A DNA stretch of 64,000 nt from an uncultured bacterium (GCA_963777505.1 CAVZQN010000007.1:1-64000), one strand, 5' to 3'. Shown: positions 4,628 to 62,183, counted from the first letter of the stretch. Notes: generated by a model from the letters alone, not told the origin. Made by a program: numbers and translations.

Positions 4628-5710
4628 TCATTTTTTTTGTTCGGCGCCTTTTTTTAGAAGCAATGATACAAGATCTGAATTTCCTGATTCCTGTGCGAGA
4701 TGAACGGCGTCATGATTTTGCTTGTTTTTTAAACTCAGGTTTGCACCATGTTGAATCAATATTTCCGCGACTTCAAGTTTTCCAGCGCTTGCCGCATGCA
4801 ACAAGGGGGTTGCTCCGGAAGTGTCGACAGCGTTTGGATTTGCCTTCTTTGAACACAAAAGCTTTACAGACTCAACATGCCCATTACGCGATGTCCATGC
4901 GAGTGCTGTCATTCCTTTTTTATCTTTGGCGTCACGATCTTCAGCGGTAATTGCGTTCTTCAACAAAAGTTCAACGAGATCCGTATACCCGCGTTGCGCA
5001 GCCAATATTAATGCGGTTTCCAAAGTAGCATGATTTTGAACAAGAACGTCTGCTCCTGCATTGATGAGCGCTTCGGTAATCGAAAATTCATTCTCCGTGA
5101 CGGCGAGCATGACTGCACTGAATCCAGCATTATCGCGTACATCAACATTTGCGCCTCCAGTGATGAGAGCGTGAGCAATTTCAGATTGATGTGTACGAAT
5201 TGCATGAATCAATGCTGAATTCCCATCAAAATCAGGCTGACTTAAATTCAATCCGCCAGTTACGAGCGCGCGAACAGCTTCCAGATGTCCGTTGAGAACC
5301 GCAACTGAAACCGGAGTTCTGCCTTTCACATCCTTTTGATTCCGATCCAATTTCGGATTTGAAAGAAAGGCCTGGATTATGTTGATTCTTCCAGCTTGAG
5401 CTGCATGCATTAGTGCAGTCTCACCTTGCTGATTCTTGCGATTTGGATCCGCACCGGCATCGAGCAATGCTTTTACAATCGTTGCATTGCCACTTTGGCT
5501 GGCTTTCATCAATGCTGATTCACCGGCCGAATCAGCACTTTCTATATCAATGCCGCCTTCGATAAACAACAGCGCAAGATCTTCTTTGCCATCAGCGATC
5601 TGTTTTAAAAAGGAGTCCGAATTGAATTCAATTCCACGGGTTTCAATTTGTTTTCTTGCTTTCCCGGGAACATTTAAGACTTTTGTCCGGAAGAAATCTT
5701 TTACAGACAC
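4628..5710 (-). CDS. ankyrin repeat protein
   Basis: About nine G-x-T/S-A/P-L-x-x-A...G...GAD/NxN repeats. Confidence 0.93.
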   Translation of the reverse strand: MSVKDFFRTKVLNVPGKARKQIETRGIEFNSDSFLKQIADGKEDLALLFIEGGIDIESADSAGESALMKASQSGNATIVKALLDAGADPNRKNQQGETALMHAAQAGRINIIQAFLSNPKLDRNQKDVKGRTPVSVAVLNGHLEAVRALVTGGLNLSQPDFDGNSALIHAIRTHQSEIAHALITGGANVDVRDNAGFSAVMLAVTENEFSITEALINAGADVLVQNHATLETALILAAQRGYTDLVELLLKNAITAEDRDAKDKKGMTALAWTSRNGHVESVKLLCSKKANPNAVDTSGATPLLHAASAGKLEVAEILIQHGANLSLKNKQNHDAVHLAQESGNSDLVSLLLKKGAEQKK

Positions 5711-5807
5711 AACAAACGATGCCTCCGAGTGTTCCTACCTTTTTTTATGAGAGTGATTATTATATTCAAAGTGTTTTGAAAGCATAAGGAAAATTTCAGG
5801 AGGAAGC

Positions 5808-7400
5808 ATGAAAAGACTTTTTGCTGGAGCTGCGCTTTTGCTTGTAACAGCTATTGCTCTCCCTGCTAAAGACAATCCCGGCAACGCTAAGACTGAAGTC
5901 ATCCCCCTCCTTTCTGAAGAAATAATTGAGCCCCGTATCGATGGTGTACCAGATCCTGACGCAAACCGCGTTACCACGGTCAAACGTGTTCGATCCCATC
6001 GTTATGTTGATGAACAAACCTACGCTCGTTTGAAGGATGAAGCGTACAACAATCCTGCCCTTCCTGAAGGTAAATTGATTCGATCTCTCGATGAGCGAGA
6101 ATTGCACGCCACAGCGGCCCCCGTCATTTTAAGACGATTTAATGGCATTAACTTTTTTAACGAACCTGGTTTTCCCCCAGATACAATCGTTGCTGCCGGC
6201 CCAAGCCATGTACTTGAAGGCACAAATAGCGGAATGCGCCTTTCATCAAAAGAAAACACGAATGTTCAGGCAGTACTAACGACAGCATTTTTCAATCGAC
6301 CAAACAAATTCCTATTTGATCCCAAGGTATATTTCGACAGGATCTCAAACCGTTTTTTTGCAGTTATTTTAGAATTCGATGATTCTCCTCAAACTTCTCT
6401 GATTCATCTTGCTGTTTCCCGAAGCGCTACTCCGGAGAGTCTGACATCCGGCTGGTGCCGGTATCAAATCAATGGAAAGACATCTGGCAGTGCCGCCGAC
6501 TTTCCAGGTTTAGGAATGAATGAAAATTGGCTTGCAATCACAACAAACAATTTCCGATTCAGCGACGATTTTTTTGATCGAACTCTGATTAAGGTCGTAA
6601 ACAAATCCGCTTTGGTGAACAATACAAACTCATGCCCCGCGATCAGAACATTTTCGTATGCGAATGCTGAAGCTTTTACGATACAACCGGCGCTTCATTA
6701 CACAACCAACACGCTTCCAGGTACACCATTGTTTATGGTTAGTACGATTTTTGGAAATGATAACGTCTACGAACTCTGGCGCATCAGAGGCCCTATAGGG
6801 ACCAGGCCTTCTCTAACGAAAACTGAAGTGACTGGAACTGCATACAGTATTCCGCCTAACAGCAAACACAAAGGTGGCGGTGTCTTGTTGGATACCGGAG
6901 ACAACAGAATGCTTCATACAGCTTTCCGAAACGGATCCATATGGAGCGCTTTTTCCACAGGTTGCAGTTTTGGTCTGCCTCCCAATGAGAGTTGCTTCAG
7001 GCTTGTTGAAATTTTGCCAAATGCAACTAGCGGCTCTGTAGGGTTTGAAGATTCATTTGGTGGTGGTGCCGGGAAATTCTTCTGGATGCCATCAGTGGCA
7101 GTAAATCAGAATAACGATGTTGTCGTTGCATTTCAGCAAAGTAGTCCCGGAATATTTTTAGGAACTGCGTTCACAGGAAAACGCGCAAACTTGAACCGCT
7201 TCGATCCATTCCGCGTAGCGCGGCCAGGGGGCTGCAATTTGAGTGATGTGGATGGAGGCGGCCGCAATCGAACCGGAGATTATACTGGCGCTCAGACGGA
7301 TCCTGACAACGTCTCATTCTGGATTGGTGGAGAGTTCCCTTCTACTCAAAACAATCGTTGCGAGTGGAATACAGTGATTGCTCAGGTTAAATACAATTAA
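5808..7400 (+). CDS. secreted hypothetical protein, probable beta-propeller
   Basis: AGGAGG RBS, signal peptide, PPDTIVAAGP, FDPKVYFD, ADFPGLG and RTGDY motifs, paired Cys. Confidence 0.65.
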   Translation: MKRLFAGAALLLVTAIALPAKDNPGNAKTEVIPLLSEEIIEPRIDGVPDPDANRVTTVKRVRSHRYVDEQTYARLKDEAYNNPALPEGKLIRSLDERELHATAAPVILRRFNGINFFNEPGFPPDTIVAAGPSHVLEGTNSGMRLSSKENTNVQAVLTTAFFNRPNKFLFDPKVYFDRISNRFFAVILEFDDSPQTSLIHLAVSRSATPESLTSGWCRYQINGKTSGSAADFPGLGMNENWLAITTNNFRFSDDFFDRTLIKVVNKSALVNNTNSCPAIRTFSYANAEAFTIQPALHYTTNTLPGTPLFMVSTIFGNDNVYELWRIRGPIGTRPSLTKTEVTGTAYSIPPNSKHKGGGVLLDTGDNRMLHTAFRNGSIWSAFSTGCSFGLPPNESCFRLVEILPNATSGSVGFEDSFGGGAGKFFWMPSVAVNQNNDVVVAFQQSSPGIFLGTAFTGKRANLNRFDPFRVARPGGCNLSDVDGGGRNRTGDYTGAQTDPDNVSFWIGGEFPSTQNNRCEWNTVIAQVKYN

Positions 7401-7433
7401 TACGGAGCGCAGACATTGCCTGTATGAAAATTT

Positions 7434-7483
7434 GCGGACTAGAAGTCCGCGGTCCCCAATGCAGGCCAGAGGCCTGCGGTCCC
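7434..7483. repeat. tandem REP-like palindromes ending GGTCCC
   Basis: GCGGACT-AGA-AGTCCGC-GGTCCC and GCAGGCC-AGA-GGCCTGC-GGTCCC between convergent genes. A related degenerate copy lies at 14701-14722. Confidence 0.7.
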
Positions 7484-51004: not shown

Positions 51005-53281
51005 ATGTACTTGACGAGAATACTGCTCGCTATATGTGCTCTGATCTTGTCTTTTCAATCCTCTTTATTCAGCGAGACAGCCGAACTTATCGTTCCACGG
51101 ATCTCTCAACGAATTACGATCGACGATTTTACAGGAATGACTCCGCGAGAAGGGCTTGCAGAAAAACTGGCAGTCATTGAAGGATTCATCCAAACATCGC
51201 CAACAGACGGCGCACCTTCTACACAAAAAACGGTTGTATATCTTGCCTATGACAATGACAACCTCTATGTAGTCTTTCTCTGTTTCGACAAAGAACCTGG
51301 AAAAATTAGCGCGGCGATGACACGCCGTGAAGCTTTTGGTCAAGATGAAGATTGGATTGAAATTTACCTGGATACATACAATGATCAGCGCCGTTCTTAT
51401 TGTTTTTCAGCAAATGCATATGGAATTCAATGGGACTCGCGCTATTCAGAAACCAGCGGTTATTCTGACAACCGCGGGCATCAACCGTCCTTTGATGCAC
51501 TCTGGTATTCGGATGGAAAAATTACTGATCAAGGCTACATCGTTTGGATGGCGCTCCCGTTCAAAAGCATGCGTTTTCCTTCGGGTGATATTCAAAAATG
51601 GAGAACTCTGGTCGGACGGAGTATTCCGAGAAGCAGTGAATATTCTGCCTGGCCGCATAAAAGCCGCGATGTTCAGGGGATTCTGACACAGACTTCATTT
51701 CTGAATGGGCTGGAAGATGTTGCACCTGGAAGAAGCCTTCAGTTTATTCCGTATACAAGTTTCCGATCCTTCCGATTGCTGGATGCGCAGGCTTCGCCCC
51801 CAGCCTTCATTAGCGATCGGAGCGATCCATCAGTAGGGCTGGATACAAAATTGGTTTTAAAGGACTCATACGTTTTGGATTTCGCATTAAATCCTGATTT
51901 CAGCCAGATTGAGTCCGACGAACCTCAAGTTACAGTCAATCAACGCTTTGAAGTTTTCTTCCGCGAGAAGCGTCCATTTTTTCTAGAGAATGCACAATAT
52001 TTCGAAACTCCACTGAATCTTGTTTTCACCCGGCGAATTGCTGATCCACAATTGGGCGGTCGTCTGACTGGAAAGTATGGCCCGTACACAATGGGATTTT
52101 TATTTGCGAATGATGAAGCTCCAGGTAAACAAGAACCGATTGAGAGTCCGATTTATGGCGATGATGCATATTTCGGGATCTTTCGTGTCAGCAGAGATAT
52201 TTTTGGACAATCCTCAATTGGGGCGCTATTTACTACAAGAGATTTTGAAGACGACACTAACAGTGTCGGGGGCGGCGATTTTCGATTGCGTTTAAATGAT
52301 CAGTGGCAGGCAAATGGACAATTCGTTGCGAGCCGTACAGATTTTGATGATGGAAGTAACTTTTCAGGACATGCAATCCGCAGCGAAATTACAAGAACAG
52401 GCAGCCAATTTGGCCTGGACATTCTCTATAACGATCTGTCACCGGAATTTCGAACTTTTACCGGATTCATTCCACGCGTTGATTTTCGAAGTATTGAAGG
52501 AAGCACACACTATTATTTTCGACCGGAAGGTAAATTTCTAATTGCATGGGGACCGGAGATAGGCGCTCTTGAATTATGGGATTACAATGGCACCCGCCTT
52601 GATTCCAGCTTACACCCATCGCTTTATGTGGAGCTGCAACGTCAAACCTACATTAGAATGAATTACTTTCATGATCGCCAGAGACTCCGGCCAGAAGATT
52701 TTATTGAACTATCGGAAGATGTGGATTTCAAAACACCTCAATACCTCTTTAATCTTGAAACCTCTTTCTTGCAAAGAGCTACAATCCGTTTCTCGTACGA
52801 ATTCGGGAAAGAAATCAATTTTGTTCCGCCTGTAGGCCAGACTCCTGACCTGAGTGACTTCAATTCTGCAGATTTGGAATTGATCATGCGGCCGCTTCCG
52901 CGCCTTCAAGTGCGTACAAATTATCTATTCACAGGACTGAAATCACTGGATGACGAAAAGATCTTTGATGATCATATCGTTAGCGTTCGATCAAATTACC
53001 AGTTTACGAAGGAATTTTCCCTCCGGCTGATCCTCCAGTATGAATCGACTCTCGCAAATCCGGCCCTGACGAGTTTAGAGGATAGGCGCAATTTGAATGC
53101 GGATGTTCTTCTTACATACATGGTAAATCCATGGACTGCTTTATACGTCGGATATAACGGCAATCGTCAAAACTTAAGTCTGATCGATGAGATCGGAAGG
53201 CCTGAACTCATTCGTACCGGAAGACTCATTAATGATGCAAATCAGTTCTTTCTAAAATTCTCCTACCTGATCCGCTTGTAG
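51005..53281 (+). CDS. CBM9-like plus DUF5916 outer-membrane protein
   Basis: AYDNDNLY, LDTYND, NPDFSQIESD, EKRPFFLE and FTRRI. C-terminal FFLKFSYL. Confidence 0.85.
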   Translation: MYLTRILLAICALILSFQSSLFSETAELIVPRISQRITIDDFTGMTPREGLAEKLAVIEGFIQTSPTDGAPSTQKTVVYLAYDNDNLYVVFLCFDKEPGKISAAMTRREAFGQDEDWIEIYLDTYNDQRRSYCFSANAYGIQWDSRYSETSGYSDNRGHQPSFDALWYSDGKITDQGYIVWMALPFKSMRFPSGDIQKWRTLVGRSIPRSSEYSAWPHKSRDVQGILTQTSFLNGLEDVAPGRSLQFIPYTSFRSFRLLDAQASPPAFISDRSDPSVGLDTKLVLKDSYVLDFALNPDFSQIESDEPQVTVNQRFEVFFREKRPFFLENAQYFETPLNLVFTRRIADPQLGGRLTGKYGPYTMGFLFANDEAPGKQEPIESPIYGDDAYFGIFRVSRDIFGQSSIGALFTTRDFEDDTNSVGGGDFRLRLNDQWQANGQFVASRTDFDDGSNFSGHAIRSEITRTGSQFGLDILYNDLSPEFRTFTGFIPRVDFRSIEGSTHYYFRPEGKFLIAWGPEIGALELWDYNGTRLDSSLHPSLYVELQRQTYIRMNYFHDRQRLRPEDFIELSEDVDFKTPQYLFNLETSFLQRATIRFSYEFGKEINFVPPVGQTPDLSDFNSADLELIMRPLPRLQVRTNYLFTGLKSLDDEKIFDDHIVSVRSNYQFTKEFSLRLILQYESTLANPALTSLEDRRNLNADVLLTYMVNPWTALYVGYNGNRQNLSLIDEIGRPELIRTGRLINDANQFFLKFSYLIRL

Positions 53282-53362
53282 CTCTTCTTTCGATTGTATG
53301 TAGCCTAAATTACTATACCGCTATTCGTGCTAACGCTTATTTTCTTGTTAAGGTTTGTGTGG

Positions 53363-54508
53363 ATGAATACCCGAACGATCTGGCCCCTTGCAAAGGAAAC
53401 ATTTAAAGAATGGCAGGAAGACAATGCTCTCCGGCTGGGAGCTGCACTTTCCTATTACACGATCTTTTCACTTGCTCCTTTACTAATTATCATCATTGGG
53501 ATTGTCTCTATTGTCTTTGGAAATGATGTGGCACGTACACGAATCATGGAACAAATGCAGGGTCTTATAGGGGAACAAAGTGCCGCCGCTATTGGCGATC
53601 TTCTGAAGTCCCAGGAAGAAAAGACATCCACCGGAATTTTTGCAACGCTTGTTGGAGTGATCACCTTACTGGTTGGCGCTACGGGAGTTGTTGGAGAACT
53701 TCAAAAATCACTTAGCACAATTTGGGAAGCCCCGGAACCAAAAGGAGGGCTAGTCGCTTTGATACGCGAACGGATACTTTCCCTGGCGATGATTTTAGGA
53801 ATTGGTTTTCTCCTTTTAGTTTCTCTGTTGTTATCAGCCGCTTTAACGGCACTCGGCGATTCTTGGGGAACAGCAAAAATACTGGAAAGTATCAATTTCG
53901 TTATCTCACTTGCGGTTATAACTGTTCTATTCGCTGCAATGTTCAAATTCCTTCCTAACGTCAAGATCCCATGGCGAAACGTTTGGATTGGTGCAGCTTT
54001 CACAGCGATATTATTTACAATAGGGAAAACACTGACAGGATTGTACCTCTCCAAAAGCGCAGTCGCATCGGGTTTTGGAGCAGCTGGTTCTCTGGTCATT
54101 ATTCTTGTGTGGGTCTATTACAATTCTCAAATCTTGTTTCTTGGAGCTGAATTCACGCAAGTGTATTCAAAATCTCGCGCAAGAATAAACGATGAAGAAA
54201 TAGAAGGTGAAATTTTGGAGGCTGATACGATGAACAATGTGGAAAAAGGAGTAGACAACAAATCGCCATTGTATAAAGTTGCCTACAAAGCCGGTTACCA
54301 AAGTGCAAAGGCTGATGAGCTTGAAAATAAACTCGAATCCAAGTGGAAACTTGTAAAGTGGGGCTATCGAGTTGTTGATTTCCTGGGTTTTAGAAGATCC
54401 GCAAAATTAGGCTGGAAAGGTTATAAAGCAAAAAAGAAAATCGACAAAGTTACGCAGAAAATAAAGGCAGAACCGCCAGAACAAGATCGTGTTCACAAGA
54501 GTCGTTAA
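53363..54508 (+). CDS. YihY/BrkB family membrane protein with a basic C-terminal extension
   Basis: GAALSYYTIFSLAP, FGAAGSL, WVYY and GAEF. Confidence 0.9.
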   Translation: MNTRTIWPLAKETFKEWQEDNALRLGAALSYYTIFSLAPLLIIIIGIVSIVFGNDVARTRIMEQMQGLIGEQSAAAIGDLLKSQEEKTSTGIFATLVGVITLLVGATGVVGELQKSLSTIWEAPEPKGGLVALIRERILSLAMILGIGFLLLVSLLLSAALTALGDSWGTAKILESINFVISLAVITVLFAAMFKFLPNVKIPWRNVWIGAAFTAILFTIGKTLTGLYLSKSAVASGFGAAGSLVIILVWVYYNSQILFLGAEFTQVYSKSRARINDEEIEGEILEADTMNNVEKGVDNKSPLYKVAYKAGYQSAKADELENKLESKWKLVKWGYRVVDFLGFRRSAKLGWKGYKAKKKIDKVTQKIKAEPPEQDRVHKSR

Positions 54509-54556
54509 TCATTCCGCTCTAGAATAAAAGGGAATCTTTTATATATACTTGTCAGC

Positions 54557-55108
54557 ATGCGACTAGTAACCGCGACCCTTCTAATGTTGTTAGCATTTCA
54601 GATGAGTGCAAGCACGCCGGTTATTCCTCCTAAAATCCGAAATGAAGGCGAAAAGATTCTTGGTTGGGTCAAAGATCCTACCTTATTGGAAGCACTCCAG
54701 AAGCAAAATAAAATGTCAAAAAGCCTTGATGAGATTCAAAAAGTTGATCGTGAGTGGGTGGAAGGTAACATCTCAGAAGATTTCGTTAATTCAAAGCTGC
54801 AAGGTCCCTGCGCAGAAAAGCTGAAAGAATTAGAACGTAAAATTCCGAGTGCATCTGAATCGTTTTTAATGGATGCACAGGGCGGCCTTGTTTGCGCTAC
54901 AAAAAAGACTTCTGATTACTGGCAAGGCGATGAACCAAAATGGAAAGATGCCTTCGAAGGCTCTGAGGACATCGTCTTTGGCGCACGAAACTATGATGAA
55001 AGCACGAAATCCACATTAATGCATATTTCTGCGCCAGTTAGAGAAAATCAGAAAACAATTGGGGTCGTTTCTGTAGGAATTAATCTGACAAAACTTTCAG
55101 AATATTAA
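54557..55108 (+). CDS. stand-alone secreted Cache/PDC sensor-like domain
   Basis: Signal peptide, TSDYWQGDEPKW, YDEST and ISAPV..IGVV.VG. No second TM or output domain. Confidence 0.72.
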   Translation: MRLVTATLLMLLAFQMSASTPVIPPKIRNEGEKILGWVKDPTLLEALQKQNKMSKSLDEIQKVDREWVEGNISEDFVNSKLQGPCAEKLKELERKIPSASESFLMDAQGGLVCATKKTSDYWQGDEPKWKDAFEGSEDIVFGARNYDESTKSTLMHISAPVRENQKTIGVVSVGINLTKLSEY

Positions 55109-55117
55109 GCAGGGCAC

Positions 55118-56017
55118 TTATTTTGTTAGCTTTGAATTTAATTCCGTCAGTGATTCATCTGCAATAATACGAAATACTCGTGGGTTGGCTCCGGCGGGAA
55201 AGTGTTCAGCCAGTAGACTATCGGTAACAATAAACCGCCGGGAAGACAAAGCCCGTTGCCAGTCTTTTCTTCGTGCATCCCGAAGTTCAATCGCTGACGT
55301 ATCGATACCAACAGATATAAGTGTTGTCTTGGCCCAAAGCAAAAACTCAGACCAGCGAGATACGATTGTAATTAATGTATCCGGTTCAGGTTTTGGTTGC
55401 GAGGCAAGTACTTTAGGAACTGAACGCGACCGTAGATAAAAGCATGAAGTTTCAGATGACAAAATTTTTTGTATATCCTCAGCGCTGTCATAGAGTGCGA
55501 CACAAAATGCACCAACGAGATTTTTTGGATCTGCACTTTCTTCAAAGCCTATTCCTTTTACGGGCATCGAGTTTGAATTACGAACTTCGGTAACTAAAAT
55601 TGCCCGCAGTTCTGGATCTGGTTCAATCACAAGAATATGATCCGGAGGCTGCATTGAAAGCCATCGTGCAATTCTGGATTGAATTTCATTTAACGAATAG
55701 CCTTTGTCTCGCATCACTTGAAAAAATGTAGATATCAAGCGATCCAGGTTCAAAGATGAGTCGAGTCTTTGGTCTTCCGTCAGAGCGCGCACATAAAATC
55801 CACTTCCCCGCTTCCATTTAGCCCAACCCCTTTTTACCAATTCTCGATACGCAGCACGAACGGTGTTTGGATGGATATGGAAACGCCTTCCCAGTTCACT
55901 GGTGCTTGGCAGTTGTTCACCTGGTGAGAGATCGGCGCTCACGATTCCAAGGATCAATTGTGTAATTAGTTGTTCTTGAAGAGGTACTTCGCTGCTTTTA
56001 GACAGCCAGATTTTCAT
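55118..56017 (-). CDS. GntR (YtrA-like) transcriptional regulator with a long C-terminal domain
   Basis: PGEQLPSTSEL..IHPNTVRAAYREL..RGSGFYV. Confidence 0.88.
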   Translation of the reverse strand: MKIWLSKSSEVPLQEQLITQLILGIVSADLSPGEQLPSTSELGRRFHIHPNTVRAAYRELVKRGWAKWKRGSGFYVRALTEDQRLDSSLNLDRLISTFFQVMRDKGYSLNEIQSRIARWLSMQPPDHILVIEPDPELRAILVTEVRNSNSMPVKGIGFEESADPKNLVGAFCVALYDSAEDIQKILSSETSCFYLRSRSVPKVLASQPKPEPDTLITIVSRWSEFLLWAKTTLISVGIDTSAIELRDARRKDWQRALSSRRFIVTDSLLAEHFPAGANPRVFRIIADESLTELNSKLTK

Positions 56018-56043
56018 TGCTTCTGTAATTAAAACACAGGTAA

Positions 56044-56087
56044 GTCGTCAATCTGTAATGACGACAAGGCTCATCTCACAATGTGAC
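56044..56087. promoter_or_regulatory. dyad sites in the divergent GntR/desaturase promoter
   Basis: GTCGTCA-N8-TGACGAC and TCACA-A-TGTGA. Confidence 0.4.
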
Positions 56088-56162
56088 AGTTAAGAAACTA
56101 TAACAATGTGTCGATTCTTGAGCATAAGAACCTCGTATATTGCGGTTGAGAGGTAAAACATT

Positions 56163-56972
56163 ATGAGCCTGATTCAATCGTATGAAAGGAACCGTTCAAT
56201 CTTGTTTAGCCGAATCATTATTTCTGCCGTTGTTACCAGCGCAATTGCAACATATTTCTGGCACCCTGCAGGCGCCTTGCTTGTTGTACTGGACTTAATC
56301 ATACGGACGTATTTGCATTTTATTGCAGGTGCGATGGCCCATGAAGGTGTTCACGGACATCTTGGCAATACGAAAAAATCAAATCGTTGGTGGAGTCGCA
56401 TTGCACTAATTCCAACGACAGTTCCGGAAGTTACATTTCGCAAAACACATATCCAGCATCATGCGGCAACAAACATTCCTGATAAAGATCCGGATGAATT
56501 TCTGAATACAAATCACACCTGGCAAATTCCGTTTCGCGCCCTCGCAATGCCGCATCACTGGCTTATGTGGCTTTTAAAGAGAGGACAATTTTCTCGTTCA
56601 GACCGGATCGAGTATGTTCTGACTTATGTTGGGCTAATAGCAATCTACGGCGCGATTGCTTCCGTTGTTGGCGTTCAGCGCGTTCTACTCGGACTGATTC
56701 CTTCAGCCATTTTGCATTCTTTATTCTTGTGGTACTTCTTTGCAATCAAAACACATGAAGGCTATCACCTGGGAATGGCTGCCAGACGCTCTCACAATTA
56801 TTACGGCAAATTAATCTACTGGCTCTCATTCGGACTCTCCATGCATCGTACACATCACATGAAACCACAACTTGCATGGCTACAAATGTCGAGTGAAGTG
56901 GAATCTGGTACATGGACACAACGTCTTCTGTTTCAACGGAGCATCGACCCCTCCGTAAAGAAAATTGCATGA
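56163..56972 (+). CDS. membrane di-iron fatty acid desaturase/hydroxylase family
   Basis: Three His boxes (HEGVH, HIQHH, HRTHH) with TM segments. Confidence 0.88.
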   Translation: MSLIQSYERNRSILFSRIIISAVVTSAIATYFWHPAGALLVVLDLIIRTYLHFIAGAMAHEGVHGHLGNTKKSNRWWSRIALIPTTVPEVTFRKTHIQHHAATNIPDKDPDEFLNTNHTWQIPFRALAMPHHWLMWLLKRGQFSRSDRIEYVLTYVGLIAIYGAIASVVGVQRVLLGLIPSAILHSLFLWYFFAIKTHEGYHLGMAARRSHNYYGKLIYWLSFGLSMHRTHHMKPQLAWLQMSSEVESGTWTQRLLFQRSIDPSVKKIA

Positions 56973-58555
56973 ACCACGAACGGATCAATGACTTTCTGCG
57001 TTTTCTAATCGACTACGCAATAAAGACTTTGGCGCTGATTTTTCGATTTCTGCTGTTCATCAGATTGAACACCTATTCCATCAATCAAGCATGGCTAAGA
57101 CGCAAATATCGAATTGTTGGAGGTACTCCGATTCATGGCTTTGATGAGGAGATTCTGACTTCGATTGAATTACGTTTCGGCAAAATGGGAACTTCCGCTG
57201 CATACGCTTACACATCCGGCTCTACAAGCCATCCAAAGAAAATCGCATACGATGCCAAACGGCTGCGGCGAACCCGAATTGTATTCATTGATGCATTCTT
57301 CAGGTATCTTGCGTTGCTGCCAAATAACTGCACTCTATTCATCTTTTCACCCTTTGAATCAGATGATTCACTCACTGGATTGCTGATGCAAGAATCAGGA
57401 TTGCCCTCCTATGTTTCCGGGCTTCAAGCACCTCACCGCGTCCAGAATCACCCAGCCATTCAAGCATTGGCAAAAGTCTATGGAGATACCGCCGTTCGAT
57501 TTTGGATCCTTACAATCGCAAATCCAGGAATGATTTACGCAACAAACCCATCAACAATCGCGCTATTCCTTAACGAACTCCATGAACAATGGGAAACATC
57601 CAGTGCTTTAATCAAAGACTATGTCAACAATCCAGAAGAATTTTCTGAAACGGTAGGCAAAATTCATTGTCGAATTGCATCGCTTGGATCGAGTGAAAGA
57701 CTCAAGAAAATTGCGTCAAGCCACGAGCCATTAGCCGAAAAAGAATTATTCCCAGGACTGCATGGATTTGCGTGCTGGGACGGTGGGTACGTCAGACCAT
57801 TCATTCAACAAATCCGAAAATATCTTCCCTCCGAACAGTACAAGCATTATCCAATGTATTCGATGTCAACTGAGGTAATTGAAACAATTATGAAACTAAA
57901 CGGCGTTCAGCCTGTTTTTCTTCCGATGGCACCTGGAGTTTGTTACGAATTCATTGATGAACACAACGAAGATATTGTGGCCAATGTTTTGCGTCCTAAC
58001 CAACTGACTCCTGGCCGTCTCTATTCAATGCTTGTCAGTGATGCTTACGGTCTTAAGCGATATCAAACTGAGGATCTCTTTGAGTGTGTTGGTGCTGTTA
58101 GCGGTATTCCTGATCTTCGGTTTGTACGCAGGCGGAATCTATCCTATTCATTCACCGGAGAAAAATTAACGGCCGAACAATTGAGTCTAGCATTCGCAGA
58201 TGTCGAATCCTTTTTTCCTGAATTGTGGAAAAGTGGTTTTTTGACATGCTTTCCAACAATGGCACCACACCAACCTTCTCCATCCTATCGTGTCGTTTTT
58301 GTCTACAACAATGGAAATCTTCCAAAGAATATTGCCAACATCGCTTCTCAAGTGCAAGAAAGACTCAAACATTACAATTACGAATTCAAATCTAAGATTG
58401 AAAGCCGCCGTCTCGGAGAATTAACATTTGAATGCATGCCAATTCGCGAATTTTTTCAGCATCTATGCAACACAAGAGACGCATCCTGTTCGAGATCGCA
58501 GATTAAAACACTGCCTCTCTATACAAAATTATGGGAAAACTTCTGCATACAATGA
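56969..58555 (+). CDS. GH3-family acyl-adenylate/amido synthetase
   Basis: YTSGSTSHPKKI, YSMSTE, YEFI, GLKRYQTEDL and FTGEKLT. ATG 56969 overlaps the desaturase stop. Confidence 0.82.
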   Translation: MNHERINDFLRFLIDYAIKTLALIFRFLLFIRLNTYSINQAWLRRKYRIVGGTPIHGFDEEILTSIELRFGKMGTSAAYAYTSGSTSHPKKIAYDAKRLRRTRIVFIDAFFRYLALLPNNCTLFIFSPFESDDSLTGLLMQESGLPSYVSGLQAPHRVQNHPAIQALAKVYGDTAVRFWILTIANPGMIYATNPSTIALFLNELHEQWETSSALIKDYVNNPEEFSETVGKIHCRIASLGSSERLKKIASSHEPLAEKELFPGLHGFACWDGGYVRPFIQQIRKYLPSEQYKHYPMYSMSTEVIETIMKLNGVQPVFLPMAPGVCYEFIDEHNEDIVANVLRPNQLTPGRLYSMLVSDAYGLKRYQTEDLFECVGAVSGIPDLRFVRRRNLSYSFTGEKLTAEQLSLAFADVESFFPELWKSGFLTCFPTMAPHQPSPSYRVVFVYNNGNLPKNIANIASQVQERLKHYNYEFKSKIESRRLGELTFECMPIREFFQHLCNTRDASCSRSQIKTLPLYTKLWENFCIQ

Positions 58556-59256
58556 GCAGTGACATTAATTTATCTCGTATCAAATTAGTAAGCTGGGATG
58601 TTGATGGAACTTTGTTCTCATATAAAGAGTTAATTCTTCAGCTACTTTCGAGTACATTTCGCAGAATGAATGTAATGGGCCTGAGAAATACGGCAAAATG
58701 TCTCATTGAAATTTTCAGGTTTCATCACAAAGTTGAAGCGCAGCGGCTGAGTAGCGAATGTAGAGTCATTAATACCGAATTGGATCAATATGAAGCTGCG
58801 AAGGCAGATGAAAAAGAAGCAATACGAGTTGGGCTGAGTAAAATTGCGCCTCGATCGGAAGCAATTGCGATGATTGAGCAATTCGCTGCTGCGGCAATTG
58901 TGCAAGTCGCTCTGAGTGATTTTGAATGTGATTACAAATTAGATGCACTCCGCTTAAGTCATCATTTCAAAAAAGCATATGCTTGTGAGCGCATTGGCTA
59001 TTGGAAGCCATCACCGATTCCTCTTGCACAAATTCAGCGCGATTTCGGAATTGATCCCCAAGAGCATCTTCATATTGGTGATCGATCGTCAACAGATGGT
59101 CTGGCATGTGCGCGGAATGGCTGCCACTTTCTATCTGTGAAACATCTAATAACTCAGCGCCTCGGTAACGGTAGGGGCGGCCCTTCAATTTTTGTTCACC
59201 CAAACGGGCGACCACAAGGGTCGCCCCTACCCCGATCCATATCGAGAGCATATTGA
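58552..59256 (+). CDS. HAD-family hydrolase
   Basis: WDVDGTL, LSD, WKPSP and HIGDR..TDG. ATG 58552 overlaps the GH3 stop. Confidence 0.85.
   Translation: MSSDINLSRIKLVSWDVDGTLFSYKELILQLLSSTFRRMNVMGLRNTAKCLIEIFRFHHKVEAQRLSSECRVINTELDQYEAAKADEKEAIRVGLSKIAPRSEAIAMIEQFAAAAIVQVALSDFECDYKLDALRLSHHFKKAYACERIGYWKPSPIPLAQIQRDFGIDPQEHLHIGDRSSTDGLACARNGCHFLSVKHLITQRLGNGRGGPSIFVHPNGRPQGSPLPRSISRAY
59171..59230. repeat. GTAG-type REP doublet inside two overlapping 3' ends
   Basis: GTAGGGGCGGCCCTT (truncated arm) ... GGGCGACCACAAGGGTCGCCCCTAC. Confidence 0.8.
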
Positions 59257-62183
59257 GCGGCGAATTCCAGGCTCATTTTCGTGCCTGCCTGTTTTAACTT
59301 CGCCGCCTGATCGCTACCAATCCTGATTTCAGCTGGATCTAAGTATCGTCTTTTCAGCTCACTCCAAAATGCGATGGTCAAATTTAGTCCTTCAAAATCT
59401 TTTGCAGCAGTGACAGCCGCAGCAAGACATAAGGCTTTCGAATCCCTTCCCATTCCAGCCAGTGACATCGCAACACCTTCAATCTCAAAAGCGATTTCGA
59501 CACGGTCTCCGTATTTCATTGCAGCTCGTAAACTTTCTACATAATTCATTGCAGCTTTGTTCACATCACCACGGATCAATGCACAGTCCGCCAAGTAGTG
59601 AAGCGCACTATGAATGTCGCGAGGCTCATCATATTTACGCGCAATTTCCAGAGCCTTTACGGATAATGGTTCAGCTTTATCCACTTCCCATTCACTCACA
59701 AGAACCTGACAAATATTTAAAGTCGCCCGATTCATTAACTTTTCGTTTCCGAGTTTACGAAATTGTTCAAGGCTTTCTTCAAAAGCTTTGTATGCGCCAG
59801 CATTATCTCCAACAAACCATAGACTCCATCCATAAGGTTCTAGTGCTAGAGCAACCTCCATCGTATTTCCAAGCTTTCGCCAAATTTCAATACTCTTCTC
59901 AGCTAATTGACGGCCTTCGCTGTGATCAGCCTGCATAGAGGCAAACATTGAAGCTCCCCAAAGTGCGCGGGCCATTTCAGCAGACTCATCAAAGTTTTGT
60001 TTTAGTACACTTTGAAGTTTTTGCCTCCCTTCGGAAATGTGACCATGCAAAAACCAGAACCACACAACGGCACCGATCAGTCTAAGTTCGCCTTCAGGAC
60101 TATTTTTCGATGCCCACAAAATTGCAGAGCGCAAATTATCATGGTCGCGCTCCAGTCTTTCAAGCCAGAAAGTCGAAGATGCGTTACGCTCGTCGTAGGC
60201 ACGATCCGCCATGTTCGCATAATGATCAAAGTGGCGCCTTTGCAATTCCGTGGCATCACTACTTTCTGCGAGTTTTTCCACAGCATACTGCCGAAGCGGC
60301 TCAAGCATTCGATACCGCATCGAATCTTTTTCGCTGCGTTCAGAAACAACAAGCGACTTATCAACGAGTCTTCCCAGTGAATCAAGAATGTCATCCTGAT
60401 TCAATTCACCATATCCGCAGACGTTTTCCACGGCTTCAAGATCAAAACCGGAAAAGCAGGAGAGTCTACGGAATAAAATTCGCTCCGATTCCGGCAGCAG
60501 ATCATAACTCCAATCAACCGCGGCCCGTAAAGTTTGATGACGTTGTAAAGAAGCGCGTGAACTGGATGTTAGCAGTCTAAAACAGTCATCCAACCGTTTA
60601 TGAATTTCAACAACCGACATTGCTTTAATTCGCGCAGCGGCTAGTTCGATTGCTAGTGGAATTCCATCAAGTCTGCGGCAAATCTTAACAACAAAATCTA
60701 GATTGGTTTCGGTTAAAGTGAATCGAGGATCGATTGACTTTGCTCGATCTATGAATAATTGAATTGCATCAAACTGTTTCACGGTTTCAATTGTAAAAAC
60801 ATCGCTTTGCGATGGAAGCGACAGAGGTGGAACAAACCAGACTTGTTCTCCCGCCAGATTAAGTGATTCGCGGCTAGCGGCAAGGACCTTGATGTTTGGA
60901 GCTTTTTGAAGAATCACGCTGATGGCCGCAGCGGTTTCATCAAGCACATGTTCACAATTGTCCATGATTAGCAAAGCATTCTTGTGTCGAAGATAATCCA
61001 CGACAACATCCAGCAAGGGACTATCCTTTTCCTCTTTTAAATTCAGAGCGGTTGCGATACTTTGCAGAACAAGATCATCCGAAGAAATAGGTGCAAGATT
61101 AATAAACCAAACACCATCCGAAAAATTGCGAAGGCTTTTTCCTGCGGCTTCAATTGCAAGACGTGTCTTACCCGACCCTCCAGTTCCACAAACTGTCAGT
61201 AAACGAGAAGACGATAATATCTTTCGTATCTCAGTAAGTTCCTGACTTCGGCCAATGAAATGAGTAATAAAATCCGGAAGATTGTTCCGAGGACCATCGT
61301 GGATTTGCGAACGCGCACTTTCTGATGTTCCGGAACCGGCTGAAAGTTCTTTGAGGTGGTCATATATGTCACGCACGGTTTGATAGCGATCATTCGGATG
61401 TTTCATCAAGCAAAGCTTGATCATCTGATCAAGTTGTTCAGGTATATCGGCTTTGAGATTAGTAATAGGCTCAGGCGTATCTCTCAGTATGGATGAAATA
61501 ATCTCAGCAGTTGAATCTCCTTGAAAAGGTTTTCCACCGGTGATCATTTCAAAGAAAATAATTCCCAGAGAAAAAATATCGGAACGAGAATCCAACTTTT
61601 TTCCTTGAAGCTGCTCTGGAGACATGTAATGGAGAGTTCCGATAACCGTGCCTTCTTTTGTTTCTGCTACTGTTTCGAGATTTGAAGCGCCTGAATCGGA
61701 ATCCTGTATTAAGAGTTTTGCCAGGCCAAAGTCTAAAACCTTCACTCTGCCTTCTTTGCTTACCATTATGTTGGCTGGCTTAAGATCACGATGAATGATT
61801 CCTTTTTCATGCGCTGCGCATAAGGCATCTGCAATTGGGGTTGCGATTCGAAGAAATGCCTCCACATCAAAACCATCTTTAGGAATTATGCTTGCGAGAG
61901 TATTCCCTTCCACAAGCTCCATTGTTAAGAAGTGAATTGATCCGGACTCTTCAACCGAAAAAATCGTCACAATATTCGGGTGATTGAGTGCAGCAACCGA
62001 TTGAGCTTCAGTCTTAAATCGAGTAGCTCGTGCTGGGTCTGCGGAAACGTCTTCAGGTAGTACCTTAATCGCTATCTTGCGCTTCAGTCGCGTATCTTCA
62101 GCTGCATACACTTCGCCCATGCCCCCTTTTCCGAGACGGGCAATAACTTTGTAATGATTGATCATGGTCCCGATCATGATCAA
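59196..62183 (-). CDS. Ser/Thr kinase - STAND/NB-ARC-like ATPase - TPR protein (PknK-like)
   Basis: GKGGMG, HRDLKPAN, DFGLAK, YMSPEQ. Walker A GTGGSGKT, Walker B LIMDNCEH, LDGIPLAIELAA, C-terminal TPR helices. Confidence 0.92.
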   Translation of the reverse strand: MIMIGTMINHYKVIARLGKGGMGEVYAAEDTRLKRKIAIKVLPEDVSADPARATRFKTEAQSVAALNHPNIVTIFSVEESGSIHFLTMELVEGNTLASIIPKDGFDVEAFLRIATPIADALCAAHEKGIIHRDLKPANIMVSKEGRVKVLDFGLAKLLIQDSDSGASNLETVAETKEGTVIGTLHYMSPEQLQGKKLDSRSDIFSLGIIFFEMITGGKPFQGDSTAEIISSILRDTPEPITNLKADIPEQLDQMIKLCLMKHPNDRYQTVRDIYDHLKELSAGSGTSESARSQIHDGPRNNLPDFITHFIGRSQELTEIRKILSSSRLLTVCGTGGSGKTRLAIEAAGKSLRNFSDGVWFINLAPISSDDLVLQSIATALNLKEEKDSPLLDVVVDYLRHKNALLIMDNCEHVLDETAAAISVILQKAPNIKVLAASRESLNLAGEQVWFVPPLSLPSQSDVFTIETVKQFDAIQLFIDRAKSIDPRFTLTETNLDFVVKICRRLDGIPLAIELAAARIKAMSVVEIHKRLDDCFRLLTSSSRASLQRHQTLRAAVDWSYDLLPESERILFRRLSCFSGFDLEAVENVCGYGELNQDDILDSLGRLVDKSLVVSERSEKDSMRYRMLEPLRQYAVEKLAESSDATELQRRHFDHYANMADRAYDERNASSTFWLERLERDHDNLRSAILWASKNSPEGELRLIGAVVWFWFLHGHISEGRQKLQSVLKQNFDESAEMARALWGASMFASMQADHSEGRQLAEKSIEIWRKLGNTMEVALALEPYGWSLWFVGDNAGAYKAFEESLEQFRKLGNEKLMNRATLNICQVLVSEWEVDKAEPLSVKALEIARKYDEPRDIHSALHYLADCALIRGDVNKAAMNYVESLRAAMKYGDRVEIAFEIEGVAMSLAGMGRDSKALCLAAAVTAAKDFEGLNLTIAFWSELKRRYLDPAEIRIGSDQAAKLKQAGTKMSLEFAAQYALDMDRGRGDPCGRPFG

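Follow-up and report, generated by a model that had tools for sequence, protein, structure and literature searches.

The 64,000-nucleotide stretch of DNA analyzed here (the window; GCA_963777505.1 CAVZQN010000007.1:1-64000), which derives from an uncultured bacterium placed in the phylum Acidobacteriota by inference, contains an operon of three genes encoding a membrane di-iron oxygenase (des), a divergent GH3-family enzyme (gh3), and a HAD-type phosphatase (had), arranged divergently from the gene for a GntR-family regulator (gntR). The cluster is real, conserved, and uncharacterized, and it belongs, as a variant, to a GH3-dependent aminolipid theme and is not without parallel. Its conserved core is formed by des and gh3, joined in most relatives by a fourth gene (referred to as X), and not by the trio of the window. 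The operon is proposed, from sequence and by analogy, to direct the GntR-controlled synthesis of a modified N-acyl amino-acid-type lipid with a dedicated oxygenase, a reading that is given an even chance of being correct.

Conservation of des and gh3

Relatives of the window GH3 were collected by a scan of one genome per species, which gave four loci, and by a metagenome scan with a 34-sequence alignment, which gave 179 relatives, 80 of which were kept. The analysis covered 85 loci (L001 to L004, L006, and L009 to L088); the window itself (L005) and loci with canonical GH3s (L007, L008, L089, and L090) were left out. At least 773 proteins among 8,000 candidates scored matched the GH3 clade at an E value of ≤0.001. 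Of the 41 loci in which at least 2.3 kb of sequence precedes gh3, 38 have des upstream of gh3, in the same orientation and no more than 2.5 kb away, a count that includes L012 and L013, where des overlaps the gh3 start by 7 nucleotides (the automatic filter alone gave 36). The three exceptions (L003, L083, and L087) carry the most divergent GH3s.

The des-gh3(-had) genes form a conserved unit, and the idea that three unrelated genes were packed together by chance is extremely unlikely, being already contradicted by the conservation data. The linkage of des and gh3 is held at 40 to 64% protein identity across named Terriglobia and Myxococcaceae metagenome-assembled genomes (MAGs) and metagenome loci, the des orthogroup hardly occurs outside genomes that carry this GH3 (among 301 genomes of the phylum), and the stop and start codons overlap as ATGA at 56969-56972 (des/gh3) and 58552-58555 (gh3/had). 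Chance adjacency would be consistent with the lack of a HAD gene near gh3 in 37 of the 62 informative loci and with the retention of des without gh3 in G001, a genome of the same genus.

A HAD orthologue was found within 3 kb of gh3 in 25 of the 62 loci having at least 900 nucleotides of downstream sequence (13 next to gh3 on its own strand, 5 next to it on the other strand, and 7 farther away) and is a recurrent, not universal, partner of the GH3 clade. In a large subclade, it is replaced by other downstream genes, which encode a weakly ferritin-like DUF892-type protein, a 199-amino-acid (aa) protein of unknown function, and a HIT hydrolase. The preliminary description of this DNA had treated the trio as the unit; the des-gh3 pairing is borne out by the 38 of 41 loci, and the place of had in the core is not, as it is linked in a minority of loci; most relatives carry the fourth gene. 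The arrangement of the window, in which des adjoins gh3, had comes next in the same orientation, and gntR is transcribed divergently, defines a subtype (type A) that is also seen in L001, L004, L006, L009 to L014, and L018.

Gene X encodes a protein of ~420 aa and lies between des and gh3 in most loci. Under a strict filter, it was directly upstream of gh3 in 50 of the 65 loci with at least 400 nucleotides of upstream sequence, and it was found in 54 loci overall, including L049 and L088, which fall beyond that filter. Single X sequences gave no Pfam match above the threshold. In their alignment, an HHxxxDG motif is invariant; 13 of 18 members touch the Condensation family and 11 of 18 touch WS_DGAT, and the X profile matched nonribosomal peptide synthetase (NRPS) C domains and a diacylglycerol O-acyltransferase in the PDB. 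By these sequence features, X is assigned as a stand-alone enzyme of the coenzyme A (CoA)-dependent acyltransferase superfamily (condensation/WS-DGAT-like).

The cluster is rare and patchy in the phylum. Among 41 relatives, the GH3 clade was present in G000 and G003 only, and two others carry canonical GH3s at ~27% identity; in a 300-genome phylum sample, it was present in 3 genomes at an E value of ≤1e-40. The genomes with the clade are G000, G003, and G490, the last of which is taken to be the same genome as G187, and in all three, gh3 and des are adjacent or 1.3 kb apart. Orthologues of des (E value of ≤1e-30) were found in 4 of 301 phylum genomes (G000, G001, G003, and G187). In G187/G490, des and gh3 lie 1.3 kb apart on the same strand, the X-containing type. 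The copy in G001 (locus L096, G001:C1:70000-86000, at ~5627-7479) has an intact-looking des with 77% identity and a gntR that aligns in two frames, which suggests a frameshift; at the nucleotide level, the resemblance to the window does not extend past the 3' end of des. Since the four-gene arrangement also occurs in G003 and in Terriglobia MAGs, the G001 copy is probably a deletion remnant.

Several loci showed additional arrangements. An apparent X-GH3 fusion in L078 (1521-4202) was rejected as a probable frameshift, the C terminus of X being replaced and the near-identical L065 having two open reading frames (ORFs), and an apparent Des-GH3 fusion in L004 (5059-7587) is set apart from its close relative L001 by reading frame alone. 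A Des-X single frame with clean read-through at 2926-4992 of L076 is a lone metagenomic instance and was not counted as evidence. In one subclade (L036, L043, L051, L065, and L078), gh3 is followed by genes for a protein of unknown function (237 to 283 aa), a second, larger FA_desaturase protein (396 aa), and a HAD protein on the opposite strand, with a class I methyltransferase gene additionally present in L036, L043, and L051. The most divergent clade member (L003, 35-7602; 38% identity) is without des or HAD and has upstream of gh3 a polyketide synthase (PKS) AT-DH-ACP module and genes for an acyl-CoA dehydrogenase, a 2-oxoacid-dehydrogenase-type acyltransferase, and an Mpo1-like dioxygenase. 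In another subclade (L052, L074, and ~11 to 15 related loci), genes for an APH-family kinase, an acyl-CoA dehydrogenase, and a TPR protein accompany the des-X-gh3 core, upstream of des on the opposite strand. The APH and acyl-CoA dehydrogenase pairs presumably resemble kinase/dehydrogenase pairs that process 4-hydroxyacyl-CoA, and their position beside the core could be a hint of hydroxy-fatty-acid handling or could reflect lineage synteny only.

The encoded proteins and the candidate operator

The gene order, the two ATGA overlaps, and the 145-bp gap (56018-56162) across which gntR diverges from des-gh3-had agree with the preliminary description (Table 1), as do the catalytic motifs that it had listed for Des, GH3, and HAD, all of which are present in the translations and are invariant or nearly so across the families. 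Further in-frame ATG codons occur upstream of gh3 (56912) and of had (58531). The start of gh3 at 56969 is favored because homologues align from residue 1 to 3 of the 528-aa form; for had, 58552 and 58531 are both possible.

Table 1. Features of the gntR-des-gh3-had locus, in window coordinates
Feature	Coordinates	Strand	Description
gntR	55118..56017	-	GntR-family regulator, 299 aa; PF00392
des	56163..56972	+	membrane di-iron His-box oxygenase (desaturase or hydroxylase), 269 aa; PF00487
gh3	56969..58555	+	divergent GH3-family adenylating acyl-acid amido synthetase (predicted), 528 aa; PF03321, PF23571
had	58552..59256	+	HAD-IA-type phosphatase (DxD), 234 aa; conserved part ends at ~residue 200
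candidate GntR operator	56083..56105		imperfect palindrome (T)GTGACAGT-N7-ACTnTnACA
perfect dyad GTCGTCA-N8-TGACGAC	56044..56065		window-specific 7-nt inverted repeat

Profile matches, motifs, and predicted fold all place the window GH3 in the GH3 family. The protein matches PF03321 (32.8 bits; 5.6e-8) and PF23571 (45.2 bits; 1e-11), with a cut-off of 23.6 for both; the C-terminal PF23572 gave no match in the window GH3 and is matched in some clade members. It contains the nucleotide-binding motifs T82SGSTSHPKK, Y297SMSTE, and G361LKRYQTED and a C-terminal lysine (K513), and T82, S83, G84, T86, K90, S298, M299, T301, E302, G361, L362, R364, Y365, T367, D369, and K513 are invariant in 34 GH3 sequences. 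The reference motifs, as given in the available part of a recent study, are SSGTSxGxxK-like, YxxSE-like, and GLYRYxxGD-like (PMC12493201). The best sequence match in the PDB was JAR1 (1e-4). With an AlphaFold2 (AF2) model built on the family alignment (pLDDT, 88.8; pTM, 0.86), the Foldseek matches listed at ranks 1 to 26 were all plant GH3s, and PaaK-type ligases appeared from rank 29; the top values were 8e-19 for 4epl and a TM score of 0.66 for 6e1q.

A quick, provisional maximum-likelihood (ML) tree of 76 rows grouped the X-containing and divergent loci in a 63-row clade (SH-aLRT, 95), with type A sequences and L002 falling outside. The GH3 clade is, as judged from sequence comparison, deep and separate from canonical bacterial GH3s. 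A hydrophobic helix at residues 13 to 31 of the window GH3 was considered as a membrane anchor and rejected, as the hydrophobicity is not kept in the family consensus. Complex prediction for GH3 and Des returned a score of 0.00, a "no answer" that is evidence in neither direction.

Des is assigned to the membrane fatty-acid desaturase/hydroxylase superfamily by its match to PF00487 FA_desaturase (71.3 bits against a cut-off of 29.7; 1.4e-19), its histidine boxes (HEGVHGH, HIQHH, and HRTHH), and four to five hydrophobic segments in two pairs (12-30, 36-54, 152-170, and 165-195). Ten histidines (H60, H64, H96, H99, H100, H198, H211, H228, H231, and H232) are invariant in 13 orthologues. Desaturation and hydroxylation are indistinguishable from its sequence. 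A PDB sequence search gave no meaningful match, and the matches in a protein atlas were generic "fatty acid desaturase" clusters only. The best curated NCBIfam match of Des is the beta-carotene hydroxylase CrtR (NF045688; 1.2e-12), which raises the alternative of carotenoid or isoprenoid tailoring by a CrtR/CrtW-like ring oxygenase together with a GH3 that would ligate a carotenoid or apocarotenoid acid. An assignment of Des as CrtR was rejected, since the match reaches 47.5 bits against an equivalog cut-off of 475, and no carotenoid biosynthesis gene is conserved beside the core in the 85 loci; this alternative is considered very unlikely.

HAD matches HAD_2 (1.7e-10) and Hydrolase (5.1e-10) in Pfam and reached no curated subfamily in NCBIfam. 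The motifs DVDGT, K152, and GDRSSTD are present, and D16, D18, T20, S122, K152, G176, D177, and D182 are kept in at least 96% of 27 orthologues, which identifies the protein at the sequence level as a DxD-type phosphatase with motifs I to IV (DxDxT, S/T, K, and GDxxxD). The final ~34 residues of the ORF have no counterpart in these orthologues. The 3' end of the had ORF is overlapped by 61 nucleotides by a convergent gene (59196-62183, minus strand), whose 995-aa product combines a Ser/Thr kinase, an NB-ARC/STAND NTPase, and TPR repeats, and a terminator-like hairpin (59173-59185, plus strand) falls within the unconserved tail.

The regulator has an N-terminal winged helix-turn-helix (HTH) domain (PF00392; 6e-13; residues 14 to 76). 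Its C-terminal ~220 aa gave no Pfam or NCBIfam match, the NCBIfam matches covering the HTH only, and its AF2 model (pLDDT, 46.6) is unusable for assigning an effector-domain class such as FadR, HutC, MocR, or YtrA. Orthologues of gntR with 53 to 60% identity are divergently adjacent in eight loci (L001, L004, L009, L011 to L014, and L018). The palindrome at 56083-56105 is kept in the gntR-des gaps of the window and six type A loci, the flanks of which are otherwise unalignable. An exact match to GTGACASTNNNNNAASYNNNACA occurs once in the 5.23-Mb genome, at the window site, and allowing one mismatch added two more, compared with five for a reversed control pattern. Most simply, the site is a phylogenetic footprint of a dedicated operator for the adjacent GntR; at several loci, it directly adjoins the gntR start codon and would thereby also give autoregulation. 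The preliminary description had pointed to dyads in the gap. The perfect dyad at 56044-56065 is indeed present, but it was not seen in homologous gntR-des intergenic regions and is not beyond chance, with at least one such dyad in 13.5% of 5,000 shuffles; the conserved candidate operator is a different site. A simple scan of the gap found no sigma-70-like promoter.

The upstream neighbors of the locus (51005-55108) encode a DUF5916/CBM9 outer-membrane-type protein, a BrkB/YihY-family membrane protein, and a small secreted Cache-domain protein. By tblastn, the BrkB and Cache-protein genes gave no match in the syntenic region of G001, and the outer-membrane gene was only partly matched there.

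A putative aminolipid pathway and its alternatives

The observations (the order of the genes, their intact catalytic motifs, the predicted fold, the conservation, and the co-distribution) can be combined into a pathway in which every substrate and product is putative. GH3 would adenylate a free (fatty) carboxylic acid with ATP and then pass the acyl moiety on to the amino nitrogen of an amino acid or a related amine. This amide formation is proposed because of the chemistry of the GH3 family and the precedent of OlsH, a GH3-like enzyme of 526 aa from Singulisphaera acidiphila that, according to the available part of its description, produces N-acyl-ornithine from free fatty acid, ATP, and Mg2+ and works without CoA or acyl carrier protein (ACP) (PMC12493201). 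Des, which is translationally coupled, may desaturate or hydroxylate the acyl chain before or after conjugation. In most relatives, X would esterify a hydroxyl with a second acyl chain to form an acyloxyacyl aminolipid, and the window subtype, which is without X, would stop at the N-acyl (lyso-type) product. The weakest step is that of HAD, which might free the amine from a phosphorylated precursor or dephosphorylate a phosphorylated head group; acylation of a phosphorylated amine followed by dephosphorylation is purely inferential. Binding of GntR at 56083-56105, as suggested by the footprint, would control both transcription units.

The preliminary description had proposed a cluster for an N-acyl amide. 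A lipid-amide product continues to be the best-supported reading, on the precedent of OlsH, though with a conserved core that differs from the trio on which the proposal was built. The HHxxxDG enzyme X of the relatives is of the kind expected for a second, O-acylation step, which supports an aminolipid. The second desaturase and methyltransferase of the L036 group and the PKS, acyl-CoA dehydrogenase, and Mpo1-like genes of L003 likewise give the clade lipid-related contexts that support this reading. A genome-wide search found one GH3 only in the window genome and no N-acyltransferase domain of the OlsB/OlsF type (PF13444), both of which were counted in its favor.

Several points weigh against this interpretation. 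It rests on sequence and on analogy with the published description of OlsH. The window GH3 shares 24 to 26% identity with canonical bacterial GH3s of the phylum over ~230 to 240 of its 528 residues, and a branch of 5.16 parts the clade from two canonical GH3s of the same phylum in the quick ML tree. The aminolipid model has no need of a phosphatase and leaves HAD unexplained. The X profile found no homologue anywhere in the type A genomes G000 and G302 (the genome of L001), whereas as a positive control it scored 2e-146 in G303 (the genome of L002); with X absent from the type A genomes, in which other O-acyltransferases were not searched for, a complete acyloxyacyl lipid is unsupported for the window. 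The same-genus genome G001 keeps gntR-des without gh3 or had, which allows des a role of its own or a cluster that is decaying there. Local regulators of the GntR type are at least as typical of catabolic operons, and the acyl substrate may be nonfatty, as plant GH3s use aromatic and cyclopentanone acids.

These last points bear on a catabolic explanation, in which an exogenous acid (a plant auxin, phenolic acid, or xenobiotic) would be ligated to an amino acid for detoxification or uptake, with GntR as a substrate-responsive repressor and with the oxygenase and phosphatase processing the same compound. Plant GH3s, the best structural matches, conjugate indole-3-acetic acid (IAA), jasmonate, and benzoates, a GntR gene divergent from its target operon is generally common in catabolism, and many of the related loci come from apparently soil-type metagenome contigs. 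The dedicated partner of this GH3 is, however, an integral-membrane di-iron enzyme of the acyl-lipid type, most relatives add a WS-DGAT/condensation-like acyltransferase, and genes for transport, ring cleavage, or beta-oxidation are not conserved alongside the core in the 85 loci. Processing of an exogenous acid is accordingly regarded as doubtful.

It is also possible, at a level well short of even, that the same N-acyl amide chemistry yields a secondary metabolite or diffusible lipid signal, made in small amounts and acting as a signal, surfactant, or antibiotic. The patchy distribution (3 of 300 phylum genomes, with loss in the same-genus G001), the dedicated local regulator, and the position of the divergent clade member L003 beside a PKS module are in keeping with such a product, and a comparable proposal exists for the GH3 of the legionellol cluster, for which a role in the attachment of a modified ornithine is suspected in the available text (PMC5640695). 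Across the 85 loci, the core has no conserved exporter gene, and nothing separates a signal from a membrane lipid.

The aminolipid could be made in a more specific manner. Classical aminolipid pathways import the hydroxyl ready-made as 3-hydroxyacyl-ACP. The present genes might represent a fourth, oxygen-dependent route, in which GH3 would join a free fatty acid to an amine, Des would install the hydroxyl or double bond on the finished amide, and X would add the "piggyback" chain; in the HAD-linked window subtype, a phospho-amine head group (such as phosphoserine or phosphoethanolamine) would be dephosphorylated after acylation. This scheme is speculative and, taken as a whole, improbable; if true, it would imply that bacteria make a lipid of the N-acyl-serine or N-acyl-ethanolamine type, hitherto undescribed in the Acidobacteriota.

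GH3-dependent lipid synthesis in bacteria was first shown in 2025, as described in the available text for one planctomycete (PMC12493201). A deep GH3 clade with its own oxygenase and usually its own acyltransferase is a candidate source, in soil bacteria (Acidobacteriota, Myxococcota, and others), of an amide lipid that has yet to be described. The system is small, with three or four genes, a regulator, and a candidate operator, which makes heterologous or cell-free reconstitution straightforward, and amide-forming enzymes of the clade, if independent of CoA and ACP, could find biocatalytic use.

Comparison with known GH3 systems

The preliminary description had held that bacterial GH3s are mostly uncharacterized and that no described pathway contains the trio. 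A full-text literature search found no paper describing this gene combination, and none was returned for "GH3 auxin-responsive promoter" together with "desaturase" and "bacteria." The statement on bacterial GH3s needs qualification, because the OlsH/OlsI pathway of 2025 is now a direct precedent and a parallel of the same kind (PMC12493201). OlsH was the sole characterized bacterial GH3 found in the search. In the available part of that study, OlsI, an alpha/beta-hydrolase, adds an ester-linked acyl chain and OlsG methylates the head group; its authors suggest that amino acids other than ornithine may serve GH3 homologues elsewhere and leave the roles of other bacterial GH3s open (PMC12493201). 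A 2026 review, as far as its available text goes, reports the OlsHI pathway as so far identified in Singulisphaera acidiphila only, with at least 30% identity and at least 70% coverage as the criterion for OlsH orthology (PMC12971839).

Like the OlsH-OlsG-OlsI system, as far as the latter is described in the available text, the window encodes a GH3-like enzyme of ~526 to 528 aa with divergent but recognizable motifs in an operon with lipid-tailoring genes. It differs in having a PF00487 oxygenase and a HAD protein in place of an OlsI-type hydrolase and an OlsG methyltransferase. Pfam detected no alpha/beta-hydrolase among the genes of the window operon or among the scanned recurrent families of the 85 loci, and a putative esterase gene lies 1.8 kb downstream in one locus, L003. 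In the relatives, the HHxxxDG acyltransferase stands where the O-acyltransferase would be expected. None of the accessions of named clade members coincides with those in the available portion of the tree of the OlsH study, the 120 best relatives of a canonical GH3 (with generic names) included no Singulisphaera-named protein, and four GH3 loci of the phylum lacked both the published OlsH motifs and an operon of the OlsG/OlsI type.

Plant GH3s (JAR1/AtGH3.11, GH3.5/3.6, GH3.12, and GH3.15) have the same predicted fold (Foldseek E values of 8e-19 to 1e-13; TM scores of ≤0.66), the three nucleotide-binding motifs, and the C-terminal lysine. They share 12 to 16% identity with the window GH3 in structural alignments and act on hormones, whereas the acyl substrate in the window, in the context of a bacterial membrane-enzyme operon, is probably a fatty acid. 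The OlsBA and OlsF synthases, with the OlsC, OlsD, and OlsE hydroxylases, share the proposed product class, an N-acyl amino acid that may be hydroxylated and O-acylated, but are unrelated to GH3, being acyl-ACP-dependent N-acyltransferases of the GNAT type. The legionellol cluster of Legionella pneumophila places a bacterial GH3 (lol1) in a fatty-acid/polyketide cluster, with an ornithine role that the available text only suggests, and its partners (KAS III, acyl-CoA ligases, and ACP) differ from those in the window (PMC5640695).

Two operons from the phylum offer a further comparison. The first (L093, G059:C26, 3805-7817) encodes a Rieske oxygenase, a PF04116 fatty-acid hydroxylase, a hexapeptide acyltransferase, and a canonical GH3, and the second (L089, G026:C34, 4058-8820) encodes a canonical GH3 and an S15 alpha/beta-hydrolase beside an MLE-type enolase. 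Both differ from the window in their canonical GH3s and in having a PF04116 (OlsE-like) hydroxylase or an enolase where the window has PF00487 and HAD. The recurrence of a GH3, a membrane di-iron oxygenase, and an acyltransferase with nonorthologous parts supports a shared logic, in which an N-acyl amide would be made, oxidized, and acylated.

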